Below, one piece after another: positions 25,698 to 41,447 of a stretch of 42,815 nucleotides of DNA. The translations under genes were made by a program, and so were the position numbers. The first letter of the stretch is position 1, and each line of letters begins with the position of its first letter. The notes under the pieces are model-generated. The model had not been told where the DNA came from. It was given only the letters and a program-made list of their open reading frames with translations, and did no database searches. Source of the stretch: a virus (Duplodnaviria > Heunggongvirae > Uroviricota > Caudoviricetes); the IMG/VR virus record IMGVR_UViG_2630968533_000007, positions 1-42,815 of that record. One strand, 5' to 3'.

Positions 25698-26324
25698 ATG
25701 ACATGCCAGCACAATACTGTCACTTACAACCGTTCGGATTACCTAGAGAAAAGTATGATTCAGGATTTACTGATCGAAGCAATTAGTCACGATAGGATGC
25801 ATAAAAAGTTAAATGAACTGAATTGCTACTTCTACAATCGCAAACATGAAACTCAAATACGTGATGAGTTAGTTGTTATTCTCAATCAAATCAGCACACT
25901 AACTGCTTTAAGTGAGCATCCAAAACTCGGTATCGGCGCTGTTGACATATCACTTTATAACCAGTCGATATTAACGTCTGAACATAATGGCAATGTTGCA
26001 ACCATCGAGATCAAACACCATTACCCAAAGGATTTACTTTATCGGCAAGTTCAAGAAGACATCATTTCCGATATTTCAAGAGTAATAGTTTCACCAACTA
26101 CACATTTTATCCATATAATCCAGCAAAGAACTATGATTAATACTCCTTCTTTTGGCCAAGTGAAATTCCTTGAACGTGATGCAAGTGATATCAGCACTTA
26201 TGTGCAATGCCTTGAAGAGCTAAGTTCCTTCCCCAGTATCTTTCATAAAAAAAGTATATGTATTGAGGTACTTGGTGAAATTATGTCGACATATACCTTT
26301 AACGTATATTCATTTGACAACTGA
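25698..26324 (+). CDS. Hypothetical protein, second gene of the AT-rich cargo cassette; possible PD-(D/E)xK-like motif
   Basis: 208-aa ORF (alternative ATG at 25755); segment GIGAVDISLY...VATIEIKHHY resembles a D...ExK arrangement. Confidence 0.45.
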   Translation: MTCQHNTVTYNRSDYLEKSMIQDLLIEAISHDRMHKKLNELNCYFYNRKHETQIRDELVVILNQISTLTALSEHPKLGIGAVDISLYNQSILTSEHNGNVATIEIKHHYPKDLLYRQVQEDIISDISRVIVSPTTHFIHIIQQRTMINTPSFGQVKFLERDASDISTYVQCLEELSSFPSIFHKKSICIEVLGEIMSTYTFNVYSFDN

Positions 26325-27343: not shown

Positions 27344-27670
27344 TTACTCCTTAGAGCCACCAAATTTGTTACCGATTACTCGCATTGCAGCCCCACGAAT
27401 AGCATCGACACCGATCAGCCCCACCCCACCACCAATGGCAACAGAAAGTGATTTAGGCCATCCGACATACTCAAGAGCGGATGCAAAAGTCAGCGTCAGA
27501 GCGCCACAGAGTAGAATTTCGAGCGTTTTTCGCTTCCAGCCACCACCACCGCCAAAATAGGCGATGCGCAAACCAGCCATAACGATCGACATAATCACTG
27601 CACCCAGCGGTGTGTCTCCACGCCACCAGCTCTGGACCAAGTCCAGCCAGGTATTTGGGTTATGAGGCAT
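27344..27670 (-). CDS. Putative holin
   Basis: Membrane helices and charged C-terminus directly upstream of the endolysin; GAGGTGAGAG site before the ATG at 27670. Confidence 0.65.
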   Translation of the reverse strand: MPHNPNTWLDLVQSWWRGDTPLGAVIMSIVMAGLRIAYFGGGGGWKRKTLEILLCGALTLTFASALEYVGWPKSLSVAIGGGVGLIGVDAIRGAAMRVIGNKFGGSKE

Positions 27671-27712
27671 TTCGTCATCTCTCACCTCGCGATATTTGCG
27701 GGTGCTGTGTTG

Positions 27713-27739
27713 GAAATAAAAAGGCCACGCAACGTGGCC
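27713..27739 (-). terminator. Intrinsic terminator between the methyltransferase gene and the holin
   Basis: 7-bp GC stem ggccacg/cgtggcc with a 3-nt loop, followed on the minus strand by a T-run. Confidence 0.6.
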
Positions 27740-27746
27740 ACCAGAA

Positions 27747-28799
27747 TTATTTCCCCACCAGTTCACTTACCTCTTTCACCGTCTGATTAAACCGCTCTGA
27801 CTCAAGTTCAACACCTAACGCCCGACGTCCCAGCGCCATTGCTGCTTTTATTGTGGAACCGGATCCCATAAAAAAATCAGCAACCAGATCACCTGGTCGA
27901 CTACTGGCATTGATTATTTGCCGGAGCATATCCGCAGGCTTCTCACACGGATGTTTACCCGGGTAGAACTGAACGGGTTTATGCGTCCAGACGTCGGTAT
28001 AAGGCACGGAAACTGATACGGAGAAATAGCGCCGGAGAGTTTTAAACTCATCCAGCAATTCAGAATATTTGCGATTCAGTGAATCATAAGATGCCACCAG
28101 CTGGTGGTGTGGTTGTTCCAGTTGTTGTTCCTGAAACTTCTCTGCCGCTATACGGGAAAACAGTGCCTGTAACTTCCGATAGTCAGCCTCATTCGGCAAC
28201 TGCCACTGACTGGCACCAAACCAGTGGGAAACCATATTTTTCTTACCTGTGGCTTCGGCAATTTGTTTTGCCGTTATACCCAGTTCGGCACGAGCATCCC
28301 TGAAATACGATATCAGCGGTGCCATTATGTGCTGTTTGAGTTCCCTTTCTTTTGCCGCATAGCCGTCACTTTTGCCGCGATATGGCCCCTGGTAATGTTC
28401 AGCAAACAGAACGCGCTCTGTGGCAGGAAAATATGCGCGCAGACTTTCTTTATTACACCCATTCCAACGTCCGGACGGCTTCGCCCAGATGATATTGTTA
28501 AGCACGTTGAAACGTTCACGCATCATGATCTCAATATCAGATGCCAGGCGATGCCCACAGAACAGGTAAAGGCTTCCGGCAGGTTTCAACACCCGCCAGA
28601 ACTGGGCCAGACAGTGGTCCAGCCACTTAAGGTAATCTTCGTCCCCTTTCCACTGATTGTCCCAACCGTTGGGTTTCACCTTGAAGTAAGGCGGATCGGT
28701 AACAATCAGGTCAATGGAATCATCAGGCAGGGACTGAATAAAATGCAGGCAATCAGCGTTGATTAAATCAACACTGTTTATTTTTACAGTATTTTTCAT
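27747..28799 (-). CDS. DNA methyltransferase (N6-adenine/N4-cytosine, beta class), orphan
   Basis: DPPY motif near the N-terminus and FMGSGST AdoMet motif near the C-terminus; no adjacent restriction gene. Confidence 0.8.
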   Translation of the reverse strand: MKNTVKINSVDLINADCLHFIQSLPDDSIDLIVTDPPYFKVKPNGWDNQWKGDEDYLKWLDHCLAQFWRVLKPAGSLYLFCGHRLASDIEIMMRERFNVLNNIIWAKPSGRWNGCNKESLRAYFPATERVLFAEHYQGPYRGKSDGYAAKERELKQHIMAPLISYFRDARAELGITAKQIAEATGKKNMVSHWFGASQWQLPNEADYRKLQALFSRIAAEKFQEQQLEQPHHQLVASYDSLNRKYSELLDEFKTLRRYFSVSVSVPYTDVWTHKPVQFYPGKHPCEKPADMLRQIINASSRPGDLVADFFMGSGSTIKAAMALGRRALGVELESERFNQTVKEVSELVGK

Positions 28800-28949
28800 G
28801 GATCAGTAAGCGTAACTCTGGTAGGCTCACTCTGCTTTTGCGCTAAAGCAGTGGGCCGTGGTTCGCTTGTGACCAGTAGGCATGAGCGAATGGCTGGCAG
28901 GTGCTACCAACACCCACCAGCCGCCCATTTTCACAGCAGGAAACCGCCA

Positions 28950-29153
28950 TTACTGGCAGCGTCTGAATTTATTCCCGTACCCGCCGTTATCCTTCGCCAG
29001 ACCCGCCAGAACTAACTGAGTCAGTATTAACTGGCACCGGGCTTCGCTTACTCCGGTAGTTCTCGTCATCATGCGTGGCGTTACCCACTTGTCAGCAGGT
29101 AAGAAATGAAGGACTGCGGCGGCGGTTTCTGTCATATCTTGCTGTTTTAGCAT
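28950..29153 (-). CDS. Small hypothetical protein at the start of the late operon
   Basis: AGGGA site before the second ATG at 29153; possible helix-turn-helix segment. Confidence 0.35.
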   Translation of the reverse strand: MLKQQDMTETAAAVLHFLPADKWVTPRMMTRTTGVSEARCQLILTQLVLAGLAKDNGGYGNKFRRCQ

Positions 29154-29275
29154 GTCTTTTTCCCTTCTGGTTAACATGACATACCAATAACTCTTGTCTA
29201 AAAAGCCAGCAAGATAAAAAGTCAGTATTCACGACCACCAGCGTGTTTACTGTGCTGCACCAAGTTTACAGGTAC

Positions 29276-29293
29276 AAAAAAACCGCTCAGCGG
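29276..29293 (-). terminator. Weak intrinsic terminator (possible tR'-like site of a short late leader)
   Basis: Stem ccgc/gcgg followed on the minus strand by a run of 7 T. Confidence 0.3.
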
Positions 29294-29472
29294 CGGGTTT
29301 AAGTTGTGTGGCGAAGTAACCACTCTTAACACAGTAATCTAGAAAATGCGGACCGCGTTAGTGATTTTTATCTGTTTTTCCATTATTTTTTTGCCACACA
29401 GCTTAAAACGAAAAATAAAGCAGGCGTTGCCAAACCTCACGGTGACAGTTGGCTTAGAATGAGGACATATTT

Positions 29473-30492
29473 TTGGATAAGTTTGATGAGATTCATGTAG
29501 ACATTGAATCTGAGCAGCAAGCCTTCGATTTGCTTGAAAGCTATCTTGATGGTTATGGTTTACCTGACAGTTTAAGTTTCAACGGATGGCCAAACCTTAC
29601 CATCAGATTAACCGGTGAAAAATTCAACAGATCGCTAACACCTTCAGTTATGAAGGGATTTGTTGAAATGCAAGCTCAAATCAACAAATCATATGCCCTT
29701 GCCAAGTACGGTGTCCCTGACGTCCGCAAACTGACCAAAGAAGAACTTGATGCCCTAGAAATAGAAGTTACGGTAGAACAGGGTTCTTCAATAGTAGAAA
29801 TCAACATTGATGGCTTTTTAACCAAACTCACACAGGAACTTGTTGGTAAAATGAACGCAACTGAGATCATGTTTACTGTTCTCGGCGCAGCAGTCATCTG
29901 GGGCGGAGTAACAGTATTTAAACGGTTCTTGGACAACCGTAAAGATATTCGCCTTGCAGAAATTGCTAAGGATGGAGAGAAAGAACATCTCCGGACTATG
30001 CAGATCATGAGCGAGCAAGAAACTAAACGCCTGCGGGTTATTTCAGAAATGATTGCGGAAAAACCACTTCTCGATAACATGGACCGTATGTCGTATGACG
30101 CTAAAACCCAAATGGTCAAATCCTTTGTGCGTTCAGATAACGCTCAAATTGATGGCGTTACTATTGATTCTGAAATGGCGAAAGAGTTGGTTACGAATGC
30201 TCGTAGACGTTCATCAGAAATGAGGATTGATGGTATTTACCGAATTGAAGAAGTCAATAATACTGACCCAGAGAGTTTCAAAGTTAAGGTCCGACGCGTA
30301 GATACCGACCAACGTCTAACCTGCGTAGTTCAGGATGTTTTCCTTGATGAATCCGGAAACAAAGAAGCATTGCAGCGAGCTGAGTGGGAAAGAAAGCCTG
30401 TACATTTGAGCATTAACGCAAAACACGTCGATGGTGACATTAAGTCAGCAGTAATTCTCTATGTTCGAGATGTGGAACAAAAGCCCGAGTAA
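29473..30492 (+). CDS. Hypothetical single-pass membrane protein (cargo between Q and the late operon)
   Basis: 339-aa ORF with TTG start 7 nt after GAGGA; one hydrophobic helix (IMFTVLGAAVIWGGVTVF); convergent with Q. Confidence 0.5.
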   Translation: MDKFDEIHVDIESEQQAFDLLESYLDGYGLPDSLSFNGWPNLTIRLTGEKFNRSLTPSVMKGFVEMQAQINKSYALAKYGVPDVRKLTKEELDALEIEVTVEQGSSIVEINIDGFLTKLTQELVGKMNATEIMFTVLGAAVIWGGVTVFKRFLDNRKDIRLAEIAKDGEKEHLRTMQIMSEQETKRLRVISEMIAEKPLLDNMDRMSYDAKTQMVKSFVRSDNAQIDGVTIDSEMAKELVTNARRRSSEMRIDGIYRIEEVNNTDPESFKVKVRRVDTDQRLTCVVQDVFLDESGNKEALQRAEWERKPVHLSINAKHVDGDIKSAVILYVRDVEQKPE

Positions 30493-30500
30493 TCGGGCTT
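30481..30500. terminator. Bidirectional hairpin between the convergent 339-aa gene and Q
   Basis: Perfect 8-bp stem aagcccga/tcgggctt with gtaa loop, overlapping the stop of the 339-aa gene and 7 nt from the Q stop. Confidence 0.55.
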
Positions 30501-30506
30501 CAATAA

Positions 30507-30884
30507 TCAATCTTTAATTTCGGGGTCCATCTCTAGACTAATTTCCAGCATCGATAGGCAGCCATCAATAAACCCCTCAGCCATCTGTATCTCAATGCGT
30601 ATTAGTTTCTCATCCTTTTTACGAGCCTTGGCGAGCTTTCTTTTAGAGATACCGTATAGGTAATGGGCAACAAGAAGCGAATGTTCGTCCGGCCTTTTTT
30701 GCCTTAGACGAGCAAGACAACCTTCAATAATTAATGCATCACTATCTGAACATGCCTGACGTGTTTTGCTTGTATAGGGAAGAAGCCCTTTAAACCCAGC
30801 AGCTATAGGAGAATAGTCTACTCCTGAACTATCACTCGCCGCCCATGCTCCCCAACGATCCAGAACCATTTGAATATCACGCAT
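30507..30884 (-). CDS. Q: Late-gene antiterminator Q (phage 21/82-type)
   Basis: MRDIQMVLDRWGAWAA...IAAGFKGLL... matches the Q antiterminator family N-terminus; GGAGA site before the ATG at 30884. Confidence 0.7.
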   Translation of the reverse strand: MRDIQMVLDRWGAWAASDSSGVDYSPIAAGFKGLLPYTSKTRQACSDSDALIIEGCLARLRQKRPDEHSLLVAHYLYGISKRKLAKARKKDEKLIRIEIQMAEGFIDGCLSMLEISLEMDPEIKD

Positions 30885-30901
30885 CAACTTTCTCCACAAA
30901 A

Positions 30902-31897
30902 TCAGGCCAGCACGCCAATTGCCAGCGCACGATCGATAAAACGAAATATCAGCTCCAGCTGAGAGCCATACTTTTCTTCAAATACCACGGTATCCGCATG
31001 CAGCTCGTCGTGATGCTTTCTGCACAAAGGCAGCACGAAGAGGTCATGCGCTTTTGTACCCATTCCACCCTGACCGTGGCCTATCAGGTGGTGGGGATCA
31101 TCTGCAGGCTTTCCACAACATGCACACGGCTGCGTCTTAACCCAGCGCGTGTACTTTTCGTTAACCCAGCGGCGACGTTTGGGACGTAACATAAAAGACT
31201 CCGGCGACTCCGGATCCACTTTCAGCGCCAGCACCTTTTTCGCTTTATCCTGGATGATGCTGGTGGCAGGAACCGAAGGCACAAGGTCACTTTCCCGGGT
31301 GACAGACGGCACAACAGGCTTCGGTAATCTCAGTGCCTTACGGGCTGCGCTTTCCGGTAAGGCATCCGCCAGGTCATTACGAACCAGCCACCAGCACAGT
31401 TCCGGCATTGTCACAACGTGACTGTCATCAAAACCGAGATCCCGACGCACGACAGACAACACCCAGCGGGCACAGTTATCCGTTGCCATTGATTCCAGCC
31501 GTTCCGTGAATTGATCGCGCAGCTGGTTATCGCAGTGCCAGCACAGACGGATTGCGCCCGGAGCATGTCGCATTGTGGTCATGTTCTCGCTGTGCCAGCC
31601 GGAATGAGGCCACTGACAGCCTTTTTCACGAAGTAACCAGCTTTCAAGACATTCCACGCCACCAGCACGACGGATCACTGCCTCATTACGGAACACGGCC
31701 CGAACGGCAGGATCATCCGCCAGTGGTTGTGATGCCGCCGGAACGGCACCACTGGCAAAAGATGAATAACGTTCCGGCTCAGGCTCCAGCAGGACACGCC
31801 CCTGCATAAACAGGGGCATCAGCTCTGAACCAGGCCTGAATAATACGATCCCCATACGCGGGGCAATTTCAGGGGTCAGTAGTGCTCTCACGGTCAC
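30902..31897 (-). CDS. Phage protein with C-terminal HNH-like zinc motif (DUF968-like)
   Basis: C-terminal CACCGKPADDPHHL...CRKHHDELH motif; position upstream of Q. Confidence 0.5.
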   Translation of the reverse strand: MTVRALLTPEIAPRMGIVLFRPGSELMPLFMQGRVLLEPEPERYSSFASGAVPAASQPLADDPAVRAVFRNEAVIRRAGGVECLESWLLREKGCQWPHSGWHSENMTTMRHAPGAIRLCWHCDNQLRDQFTERLESMATDNCARWVLSVVRRDLGFDDSHVVTMPELCWWLVRNDLADALPESAARKALRLPKPVVPSVTRESDLVPSVPATSIIQDKAKKVLALKVDPESPESFMLRPKRRRWVNEKYTRWVKTQPCACCGKPADDPHHLIGHGQGGMGTKAHDLFVLPLCRKHHDELHADTVVFEEKYGSQLELIFRFIDRALAIGVLA

Positions 31898-39967: not shown

Positions 39968-40317
39968 TGGAGCCATACAGCCTCACACTCGATGAGGCCT
40001 GTCATTTTCTCAAGATATCCAGACCGACTGCCATTAACTGGATACGCACAGGGCGTCTTCAGGCAACACGCAAAGATCCCACTAAGAATAAATCTCCTTA
40101 CCTCACAACACGACAAGCCTGCATTGCGGCTCTTCAGTCTCCGCTGCATACTGTCCAGGTGAGCGCGGGTGATGGCATAACAGAGGAAAGAAAATGTCAC
40201 TCTTCCGCAGAGGTGAAATATGGTACGCCAGTTTCACATTGCCGAACGGTAAAAGATTTAAACAGTCTCTTGGAACAAAGGACAAAAGGCAGGCGACAGA
40301 ACTCCATGACAAGCTAA
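39967..40317 (+). CDS. xis: Excisionase-like DNA-binding protein
   Basis: [31 protein letters not shown] immediately upstream of and overlapping int; GAGGTG site before the ATG. Confidence 0.55.
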
Positions 40318-41357
40318 AGGCTGAAGCATGGCGGGTCAGCAAACTTGGTGAAATACCTGATATAACGTTCGAGGAAGCGTGTGTCAGGTGGCTTGAAGAG
40401 AAAGCACATAAAAAATCACTGGACGATGACAAAAGCCGGATCGGATTCTGGCTTCAACATTTCGCAGGAATGCAACTAAGAGACATTACTGAATCAAAAA
40501 TTTATTCAGCAATGCAGAAAATGACGAACCGGCGTCATGAGGAAAACTGGAAACTCAGGGCAGAAGCATGCAGAAAAAAAGGGAAACCTGTTCCAGAATA
40601 CACGCCAAAACCAGCGTCCGTTGCAACGAAGGCTACGCATCTTTCATTTATAAAGGCCCTACTAAGAGCCGCAGAGCGTGAATGGAAAATGCTGGATAAG
40701 GCACCAATTATTAAAGTGCCTCAACCAAAGAATAAACGGATCCGCTGGCTGGAGCCCCATGAAGCACAAAGGCTGATTGATGAATGTCCGGAGCCATTAA
40801 AGTCTGTTGTTGAATTTGCACTGGCAACAGGCTTAAGACGCTCGAACATCATCAACCTTGAATGGCAACAAATAGATATGCAGCGCCGGGTGGCATGGAT
40901 AAACCCGGAAGAGAGTAAATCAAACCGCGCAATTGGCGTTGCGCTGAATGATACTGCATGTCGCGTATTGAAAAAACAAATCGGGAATCATCACCGTTGG
41001 GTATTTGTGTACAAGGAAAGCTGTACCAAACCAGACGGAACGAAAGCGCCAACAGTAAGGAAGATGCGGTATGACGCAAACACAGCCTGGAAAGCGGCGC
41101 TGAGACGGGCTGGTATTGATGATTTCAGATTTCACGACTTGAGACACACCTGGGCAAGTTGGCTGGTTCAAGCCGGAGTCCCGTTGTCAGTGTTACAGGA
41201 AATGGGAGGCTGGGAGTCTATCGAAATGGTTCGTCGATATGCTCACCTTGCACCTAATCACCTTACCGAACACGCACGGCAAATAGACTCGATCCTGAAC
41301 CCATCGGTCCCAAATTTGTCCCAGTCAAAAAATAAGGAAGGTACTAATGATGTGTAA
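40194..41357 (+). CDS. int: Site-specific tyrosine integrase (lambda-type)
   Basis: 387 aa with C-terminal ...[10 protein letters not shown]...[15 protein letters not shown] catalytic region; ends 14 bp from the tRNA. Confidence 0.9.
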
Positions 41358-41371
41358 CTTATTGATTTTAA

Positions 41372-41447
41372 TGGTGCCGATAATAGGAGTCGAACCTACG
41401 ACCTTCGCATTACGAATGCGCTGCTCTACCAACTGAGCTATATCGGC
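41372..41447 (-). tRNA. thrW: tRNA-Thr (anticodon CGU)
   Basis: Minus-strand sequence gccgatatagctcagttggtagagcagcgcattcgtaatgcgaaggtcgtaggttcgactcctattatcggcacca folds as a cloverleaf with CGT anticodon and encoded CCA. Confidence 0.92.

Follow-up and report, generated by a model that had tools for sequence, protein, structure and literature searches.

A convergent single-gene cassette between gene Q and a putative late promoter in a lambdoid prophage of Escherichia coli

Where does late transcription start in a lambdoid prophage whose Q gene runs head-on into a gene of the opposite strand, and what might that gene be doing there? The question is posed by a 42,815-nucleotide stretch of viral DNA (Caudoviricetes; positions 1 to 42,815 of IMG/VR record IMGVR_UViG_2630968533_000007), called the window in what follows: an E. 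coli lambdoid prophage of the mEp460/SfV/cdtI group with its late genes on the minus strand. An initial annotation, made from the sequence alone, had picked out a 339-codon open reading frame (ORF339) convergent with Q, had noted that there is no room for a late promoter next to Q, and had proposed that the gene is an insertion that displaced it. Aligning the Q-to-holin interval with related prophages, as that annotation had suggested, locates the displaced block and delimits what lies in between: a cassette of ~1.15 kb (29370-30506), which includes ORF339, separates the stop codon of Q from a Q-specific late-regulatory block at 29369-29276 (-). In relatives that block abuts Q; ORF339 thus separates Q from its (putative) late promoter. 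The gene itself is probably a new, uncharacterized prophage moron and a defense gene.

ORF339 (29473-30492 (+); TTG start, TAA stop) encodes a 339-amino acid protein that is also found, identical, in NCBI records; a Shine-Dalgarno sequence, GAGGA (29461-29465 (+)), stands 7 nt before the TTG. These features are as initially described, and so is the convergence with Q (30507-30884 (-)), whose product is a member of PF06530 (E = 2e-52), the kind of Q that constitutes the Q21/Q933W family (10.1101/651190). The ATG at 30884 is the most likely start codon of Q, as in its homologues when these are aligned, and yields 125 amino acids; an alternative TTG at 30899, listed by the open reading frame-finding tool, would yield 130. 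Between the stop codon of Q (30507-30509) and the end of the hairpin that punctuates the two genes there are only 6 nt (the annotation had counted 7), so the late promoter indeed does not directly follow Q; the block to which we assign it is ~1.14 kb away. DNA identical to the entire segment 28700-31000 is present in many complete E. coli chromosomes.

The late block (29276-29369 (-)), a putative pR'-qut-tR', emerged from an alignment of 7 phages and from a pattern search over all fetched loci. In the direction of late transcription it consists of an A-tract with a weak -35 element, TCACTA (29364-29359); a GC-rich palindrome, GCGGTCCGC (29356-29348); two overlapping -10-like hexamers, TAGATT (29341-29336) and TACTGT (29336-29331); an invariant GTTAAGAGTGGT that includes TAAGAG (29328-29323), which resembles a σ-dependent pause element (SDPE); and an intrinsic terminator, the putative tR' (29276-29297; CCGC..GCGG followed by seven T), the homologous site of which is annotated as a terminator in Ayreon and SfV. 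As a consensus this reads AAAAATCAYTAACGCGGTCCGCA, ~20 nt with hexamers of the TAnnnT type, the invariant GTTAAGAGTGGT, and the terminator. TAAGAG is itself invariant and precedes the terminator by ~30 nt; both the pause and the start site are predicted, and the late start can be read in more than one way, with either of the overlapping hexamers as the -10 element, or with TGT-TAAGAG as an extended -10, the -35 being poor. How far the homology extends depends on the kind of Q: with phages that have a different, 250-amino acid Q (SfV, Ayreon, 720R4), it stops at 29299, just past the terminator; in pairwise comparison with phages whose Q belongs to the same subfamily, it continues for another 70-85 bp, up to ~29369. 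In 1720a-02, PhiR5_1 and several Stx2a phages, the block begins at the Q stop codon; the Q proteins at these direct junctions have 126 amino acids and are 71% identical to the Q of the window. The uninterrupted junction is found in 205 of 5,426 complete E. coli genomes.

The assignment of this block as a late promoter module relies on comparison with phage 21. The curated pR'21 in the phage 21 record comprises a -35 element that starts 7 nt after the Q stop codon, a 16-bp Q-binding element (QBE), a -10 element and a start site, with an SDPE (TAAGCTG) at +2 and a terminator that ends ~50 nt past the start site; the entire module ends ~90 bp after Q. The two cassettes share a Q of family PF06530 and a block of ~90 bp in which an A/T-rich -35, an element specific to the type of Q, a -10-like hexamer, a pause-like element and a terminator within ~50 nt follow one another in the same order. 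It is because of this agreement in length and order, and because TAAGAG stands at the place that corresponds to the TAAGCT of phage 21, that we assign 29369-29276 (-) as pR'-qut-tR', and infer that the late-promoter module has been moved but is intact. The differences are also evident: the -35 of phage 21 lies 7 nt from its Q, whereas that of the window is poor, and lies ~1.14 kb from Q with a convergent gene in between; the Q-type element of phage 21 consists of two 8-bp direct repeats, that of the window of the GC-rich palindrome; and the Q of the window is a distant relative of Q21, with only a weak match (E = 7e-4) to the solved Q21 structure, 6p18.

At the expected position of the QBE there is thus a conserved GC-rich palindrome and there are no clear direct repeats (1720a-02 has AGTATGTC/AGTATGTT at a shifted position); the palindrome may be the recognition element of this subfamily of Q. 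Its place corresponds to that of the Q-binding direct repeats of phage 21; in Serratia, a different palindrome, GCGTACGC, is found there, and PhiR40_1, with a Q of only 51% identity, lacks GCGGTCCGC. Since Q proteins act in trans, the displacement of pR' should not prevent late transcription. A scan of 28800-30700 against Rfam detected no known RNA. StxS, the 258-nt RNA that constitutes the pR' leader of the Sakai Stx phages (PMC7547250), was considered and is not present in the window; it belongs to a different, longer leader.

Is the separation of Q from its late promoter peculiar to ORF339? In related phages, flanks that are 87-99% identical enclose a middle that has been replaced, so that ORF339 is present in some and missing from other close relatives, among them phages with the same virion genes. 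The replacements are diverse: orf53 (147 amino acids) and orf54 (a DUF6731 protein) in cdtI, a 148-amino acid open reading frame in PhiR40_1, IS1 with two open reading frames in SfIV, two small open reading frames in Ayreon, and, in mEp390, gp47, a TIR-TM protein (PADLOC PDLC03016, E = 1.6e-57; Pfam TIR_2), which is accompanied by an annotated bidirectional terminator. This cargo is convergent to Q in four of these five phages; the genes of Ayreon lie on the Q strand. (In its own record, mEp390 gp47 is annotated only as hypothetical.) It is the abundance of unrelated cargos in one and the same slot that points to insertion, rather than to deletion in the other phages, as the direction of the event. 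The Q|pR' junction, then, is a recurrent cargo slot, which, to our knowledge, has not previously been described as a hotspot.

That part of the initial proposal which holds the late promoter to have been displaced is borne out by the relatives in which the block abuts Q, with insertion as the probable direction; the implication of a recent, local event is not. Homologues of ORF339 that are 71-86% identical to it, and again convergent to a PF06530-type Q at a distance of 18-24 nt, are present in Enterobacter, Serratia, Pantoea, Entomohabitans and Rahnella. In five of the six genera the same late block is recovered by a motif search, ~130-150 bp ahead of the ORF start; the exception is Pantoea, in which a diverged copy is seen in the alignment. 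The surroundings vary among these six genera of Enterobacterales, in the replication genes upstream of Q as well as in the lysis genes on the downstream side, and the identity of Q to that of the window drops to ~50% while that of the ORF remains at 71% or above. The retention of the trio implies that the arrangement Q/ORF/pR' is old. Base composition tells a similar story: the pR' block (44% GC), ORF339 (42%) and Q (44%) are set apart from the adjoining DUF968 gene (56%) and from the prophage as a whole (52%), the GC content at third codon positions across Q, ORF339 and the late block (29275-30884) is 34-39%, and the three behave as a single exchangeable low-GC module.

The two convergent genes are joined at a hairpin with an 8-bp stem, AAGCCCGA-GTAA-TCGGGCTT (30481-30500), which lies between their stop codons and harbors the TAA of ORF339 (30490-30492) in its loop. 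The same stem is found at the ORF stop codon in all nine Q-linked homologous loci (Escherichia, Enterobacter, Serratia, Pantoea, Entomohabitans, Rahnella), so it is not a chance feature; the U-tract is richer in the Q direction (GGGCUUUUGUUCC) than in the ORF339 direction (GGGCUUCAAUAA), and the equivalent site of mEp390 is annotated as a bidirectional terminator. As the initial annotation had supposed, the hairpin is likely to be a bidirectional terminator shared by ORF339 and Q. (An additional note: the left arm of the hairpin, 30481-30492, encodes the C-terminal K-P-E-stop of ORF339. This K-P-E tail is confined to the Q-linked clade, for which reason the coding end of the ORF and the terminator appear to have co-evolved.)

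Is ORF339 a real gene, and how might it be expressed? The ratio of nonsynonymous to synonymous differences (pN/pS) relative to its homologues is 0.10-0.33 (pN 0.08-0.26; pS ~0.8, which is saturated), as expected of a real gene under purifying selection. It is present in 85 of the 5,426 complete E. coli genomes, always chromosomal and single-copy, each copy with at least 99% identity over at least 80% of the gene length. (In the interval between Q and the late block of E. coli PD7 (NZ_CP074047.1), there is an inserted IS1, and a truncated, 280-amino acid version of the protein is on record.) The TTG start is invariant in the alignment of seven Q-linked loci, and so is the AGG core of the ribosome-binding site, which reads GAGG in six of the seven and AAGG in Rahnella. 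A start codon other than ATG is typical of the family at large (a Leu codon in the Salmonella copy and GTG in P. aeruginosa, with ATG only in Morganella), which suggests a deliberately low level of translation.

ORF339 probably has a promoter of its own at 29361-29389 (+), with a -35 element GTGATT (29361-29366), a 17-nt spacer and a -10 element TATTTT (29384-29389), which would generate a 5' untranslated region of ~77 nt. The same pair of hexamers was located by a position weight matrix scan at the equivalent place in six loci of five genera, and the hexamers coincide with invariant columns of the alignment of Q-linked loci. This candidate promoter overlaps the -35 region of the late block, the two being back to back. 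A generic promoter scan performed no better than chance (5 sites found vs 4.1 expected in shuffled sequence), so the promoter-like antisense sites inside ORF339 are given no weight.

What kind of protein does it specify? Residues 131-149 (EIMFTVLGAAVIWGGVTVF; codons 29863-29919 (+)) form a hydrophobic segment of 18-19 residues, a putative single transmembrane helix, with a mean Kyte-Doolittle hydropathy of 1.77, which qualifies on that scale; hydrophobicity is retained at the corresponding segment throughout the family (1.2-2.3), at a position that is conserved in 35 homologues, and the structural model has a helix at residues 129-144. The single membrane helix of the initial annotation stands to that extent, as a prediction from hydropathy only; its topology is ambiguous, the positive charges being C-terminal to the segment. 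An AlphaFold model built with 35 sequences (pLDDT 82) places the hydrophobic helix (~129-150) between an α/β N-terminal domain (1-125), which the model shows as novel, and a helical region (150-218), followed by a β domain at residues ~245-335 (codons 30205-30477 (+)). The latter is modeled as a five-stranded β-barrel that matches solved oligonucleotide/oligosaccharide-binding (OB) folds, the closest of which are those of periplasmic or secreted proteins: SilF and the B subunits of AB5 toxins.

Databases have little to say about this protein. It matches a single PHROG, phrog_6191, of function unknown; no defense family of PADLOC-DB v2.0.0 at E ≤ 0.01; and, in Foldseek searches of viral models, uncharacterized proteins with low TM-scores. 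The only Pfam match, which is below threshold, is to the FNIII-A domain of tail protein J (PF24801; E = 0.002, 18.6 bits vs a cut-off of 27). No likeness of sequence or fold to SieA, SieB, HK97 gp15 or T4 Imm was found in the searches, the protein is not among the entries of the DefensePredictor supplements, and literature searches, whether with the conserved DNA block, with the peptide motifs or with the PHROG number, turned up nothing.

The family to which it belongs is nevertheless large: a profile search (clusters at 50% identity, E ≤ 1e-3) yields 1,518 clusters, and among the matches listed all are single-stretch, nearly all have ~320-360 amino acids, and none has a fused domain. More distant homologues (30-62% identity) turn up in quite different surroundings. 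In Gifsy-1-like Salmonella prophages, Morganella and Pseudomonas, they come immediately after cI and share its strand, that is, they take the position of rexAB; the homologue of Moraxella phage Mcat17 is probably also downstream of cI (the upstream gene is unannotated), and two Acinetobacter prophages have one or two small genes in the space between. In P. aeruginosa, the homologues are flanked by tail genes I and J, with which they share a strand; one homologue resides between Mu G-like and Mu I-like genes in the head module of a Mu-like prophage. A Burkholderiaceae homologue (34% identity) is located inside a type I restriction-modification operon, hsdM-[gene]-hsdS-hsdR, and a position next to a Fic gene is also seen. 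(This locus also has a PD-(D/E)XK protein and a member of PF08780, the nucleotidyltransferase substrate-binding family, as in a typical defense-island core.) The sources of homologues include environmental Halomonas/Vreelandella, Acinetobacter and a Burkholderiaceae metagenome-assembled genome.

The initial annotation had considered that its reading would fail if the gene were found elsewhere as a core phage gene. That objection does not arise, since the homologues that occur elsewhere do so as cargo, behind cI, in tail and head operons and in a restriction-modification operon, and comparison of these loci shows the ORF339 family as mobile cargo in several positions. The repressor-proximal immunity region of Gifsy-1 is known, in other Salmonella strains, to encode two validated defenses, GiPD474 and RemAIN (PMC12724215). 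Neither is homologous to ORF339; GiPD474, considered as a possible homologue because it comes from the same region, was rejected: it is a ParA-like ATPase.

The function of ORF339 can be approached only through these genomic positions, and on that basis a membrane-associated anti-phage protein that is expressed in the lysogen is about an even bet. The proposition that ORF339 is a moron, that is, mobile cargo with its own expression signals, whose anti-phage role is exerted by exclusion or abortive infection, we hold to be slightly better than evenly poised. Its working might be pictured as follows: ORF339 would be transcribed in the lysogen from its own weak promoter (29361-29389), independently of Q, and translated at a low level from its TTG codon; the shared hairpin would stop any transcription that is not antiterminated, from whichever side it comes; Q, being diffusible, would still engage RNA polymerase at pR' across the intervening 1.1 kb. 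The protein would cross the inner membrane once, combine a novel N-terminal domain with the hydrophobic helix, a helical region and the OB fold, and protect the lysogen, either by keeping an incoming genome from passing the membrane (superinfection exclusion) or through the death of the infected cell (abortive infection).

Several observations weigh against this proposal. By the positive-inside rule, the 130-residue N-terminal domain would be periplasmic without having a signal peptide, which is unusual, and the hydrophobic helix may not span the membrane at all. ORF339 has no match in Pfam, PADLOC, NCBIfam or the sequences of the PDB, whether these are searched with the single sequence or with the 35-sequence profile, and no known exclusion or abortive-infection family matches it in profile searches. 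The hexamers of both promoters, pR' and that of ORF339, match their consensus weakly. Finally, the tight conservation of Q/ORF/pR' could signify a role that is tied to late-gene control rather than to defense.

If not defense, then what? It is common for morons in the vicinity of lysis and late regions to encode factors of host fitness, for example bor and lom, and ORF339 might be lysogenic-conversion cargo of that kind, altering the envelope or the fitness of the host (stress tolerance or surface properties, for instance) without being aimed at phages. The hydrophobic helix, and an OB fold whose closest counterparts are periplasmic or secreted, would suit such a protein; the lack of a signal peptide would not, nor would the occurrence of homologues in environmental Halomonas/Vreelandella, Acinetobacter and a Burkholderiaceae metagenome-assembled genome, while the copies in a restriction-modification operon and in the cI-proximal defense slot (PMC12724215) fit defense better. 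We regard this explanation as unlikely, without being far-fetched. Less probable again is a role in tuning the late switch of the phage itself, in which Q expression, the stability of the lysogen or the timing of lysis would be adjusted by the protein, or by convergent transcription and a promoter back to back with pR', much as by the antisense promoter paQ of lambda and phage 21. The trio is, after all, kept from E. coli to Rahnella despite its changing neighbors and constitutes one low-GC module, the clade-specific K-P-E tail is encoded by the shared hairpin, the candidate ORF339 promoter overlaps the -35 region of pR', the weak U-tract in the ORF direction would permit read-through into Q in the window, and the phage 21 record has an annotated paQ. 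Nevertheless, the protein is strongly conserved and is present in contexts that lack any Q, and unrelated cargos occupy the same slot; adjacency alone accounts for the co-inheritance.

One can also think of ORF339 as an accessory of virion or tail structure or assembly that is not expressed in the lysogen, which is how one might read the sub-threshold match to tail protein J, the P. aeruginosa copies between tail genes I and J, and the copy in a Mu-like head module. The majority of copies, however, are found outside structural operons, and the gene is missing from close relatives that have the same virion genes, so that this is very improbable. We give even less credence to a silent or decaying remnant without current function. 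A start codon other than ATG, weak promoter matches, an IS1 in the interval in one strain and the existence of truncated copies are what one might expect of a relic, but strong purifying selection, full-length proteins across ~1,500 clusters, the near-identity of the 85 E. coli copies and the conservation of the TTG/GAGG pair are not.

Defense and late control need not be alternatives. A more ambitious, and rather doubtful, version of the defense proposal, which we would rank between the host-fitness and late-switch explanations, is that ORF339 founds a large family of single-gene, membrane-anchored OB-fold anti-phage proteins, and that in Enterobacterales the gene is wired into the Q21-type late switch: with its promoter back to back with pR' and its transcript converging on Q, it would be on in the lysogen, where it would dampen stray Q, and would be turned off by late transcription when the prophage enters lytic growth.

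How does the cassette compare with other known phage cargo? Lambdoid morons (HK97 gp15, lambda bor and lom, stx of the 933W type) resemble it in being autonomous, in being present or absent among relatives, in having their own terminator and a deviant GC content, and in residing in the neighborhood between Q and the lysis genes; a promoter of its own is probable for ORF339. On the other hand, ORF339 has no sequence similarity to any characterized moron, and the arrangement of stx is the opposite one: stx lies downstream of pR'/tR' and depends on Q, whereas ORF339 is found on the other strand, upstream of pR', and has a terminator in common with Q. The repressor-adjacent defenses, rexAB of lambda, BstA of Salmonella, and GiPD474 and RemAIN of Gifsy-1, occupy the position in which distant ORF339 homologues are found, but show no homology to ORF339, and the copy in the window is not beside cI. 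A further counterpart is mEp390 gp47, a membrane-associated single-gene cassette in the same slot, convergent to a PF06530-type Q and provided with a bidirectional terminator; the two proteins are unrelated all the same, and ORF339 has no TIR or other recognizable effector domain.

The junction of Q with its late promoter in phages of the Q21/Q933W type is accordingly a recurrent cargo slot that can be located by the stop codon of Q together with the GTTAAGAGTGG block and its terminator. TIR-TM proteins are listed among known and candidate defense proteins; since one occupant is such a protein, the slot is a practical place to seek new prophage-borne defenses in Enterobacterales. The ORF339 family is widespread and has no Pfam or defense-database entry; its positions (that of rexAB, the Q slot, cargo of structural operons, a restriction-modification operon) point to an anti-phage function. 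The locus also indicates that a Q-dependent late promoter can be over 1 kb away from Q in prophages that are otherwise complete, which matters for annotating late promoters and for predicting the expression of cargo such as toxins.

The remaining neighbors complete the picture of the region. On the far side of Q is the DUF968 gene (30902-31897 (-)). The first gene past the putative tR' terminator encodes a 75-amino acid protein (28950-29177 (-); phrog_331); it is followed by a DNA methyltransferase gene (27747-28799 (-); PADLOC MTase_II, E = 3e-151) and then by the genes for holin (27344-27766 (-)), lysozyme and spanin. As it follows the putative tR' and, together with the phrog_331 gene, precedes the holin gene, the methyltransferase gene would be a Q-dependent late gene. 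Just past the spanin genes, and on the strand opposite to the late operon, is an open reading frame of 208 codons (25698-26324 (+); 36% GC) that matches phrog_12494, of unknown function, but nothing in Pfam or PADLOC; with its bor-like position, it looks like a second moron. At the end of the prophage, a tRNA gene (41375-41447 (-)) adjoins the integrase gene (40194-41357 (+)) and is likely to mark the attachment site.

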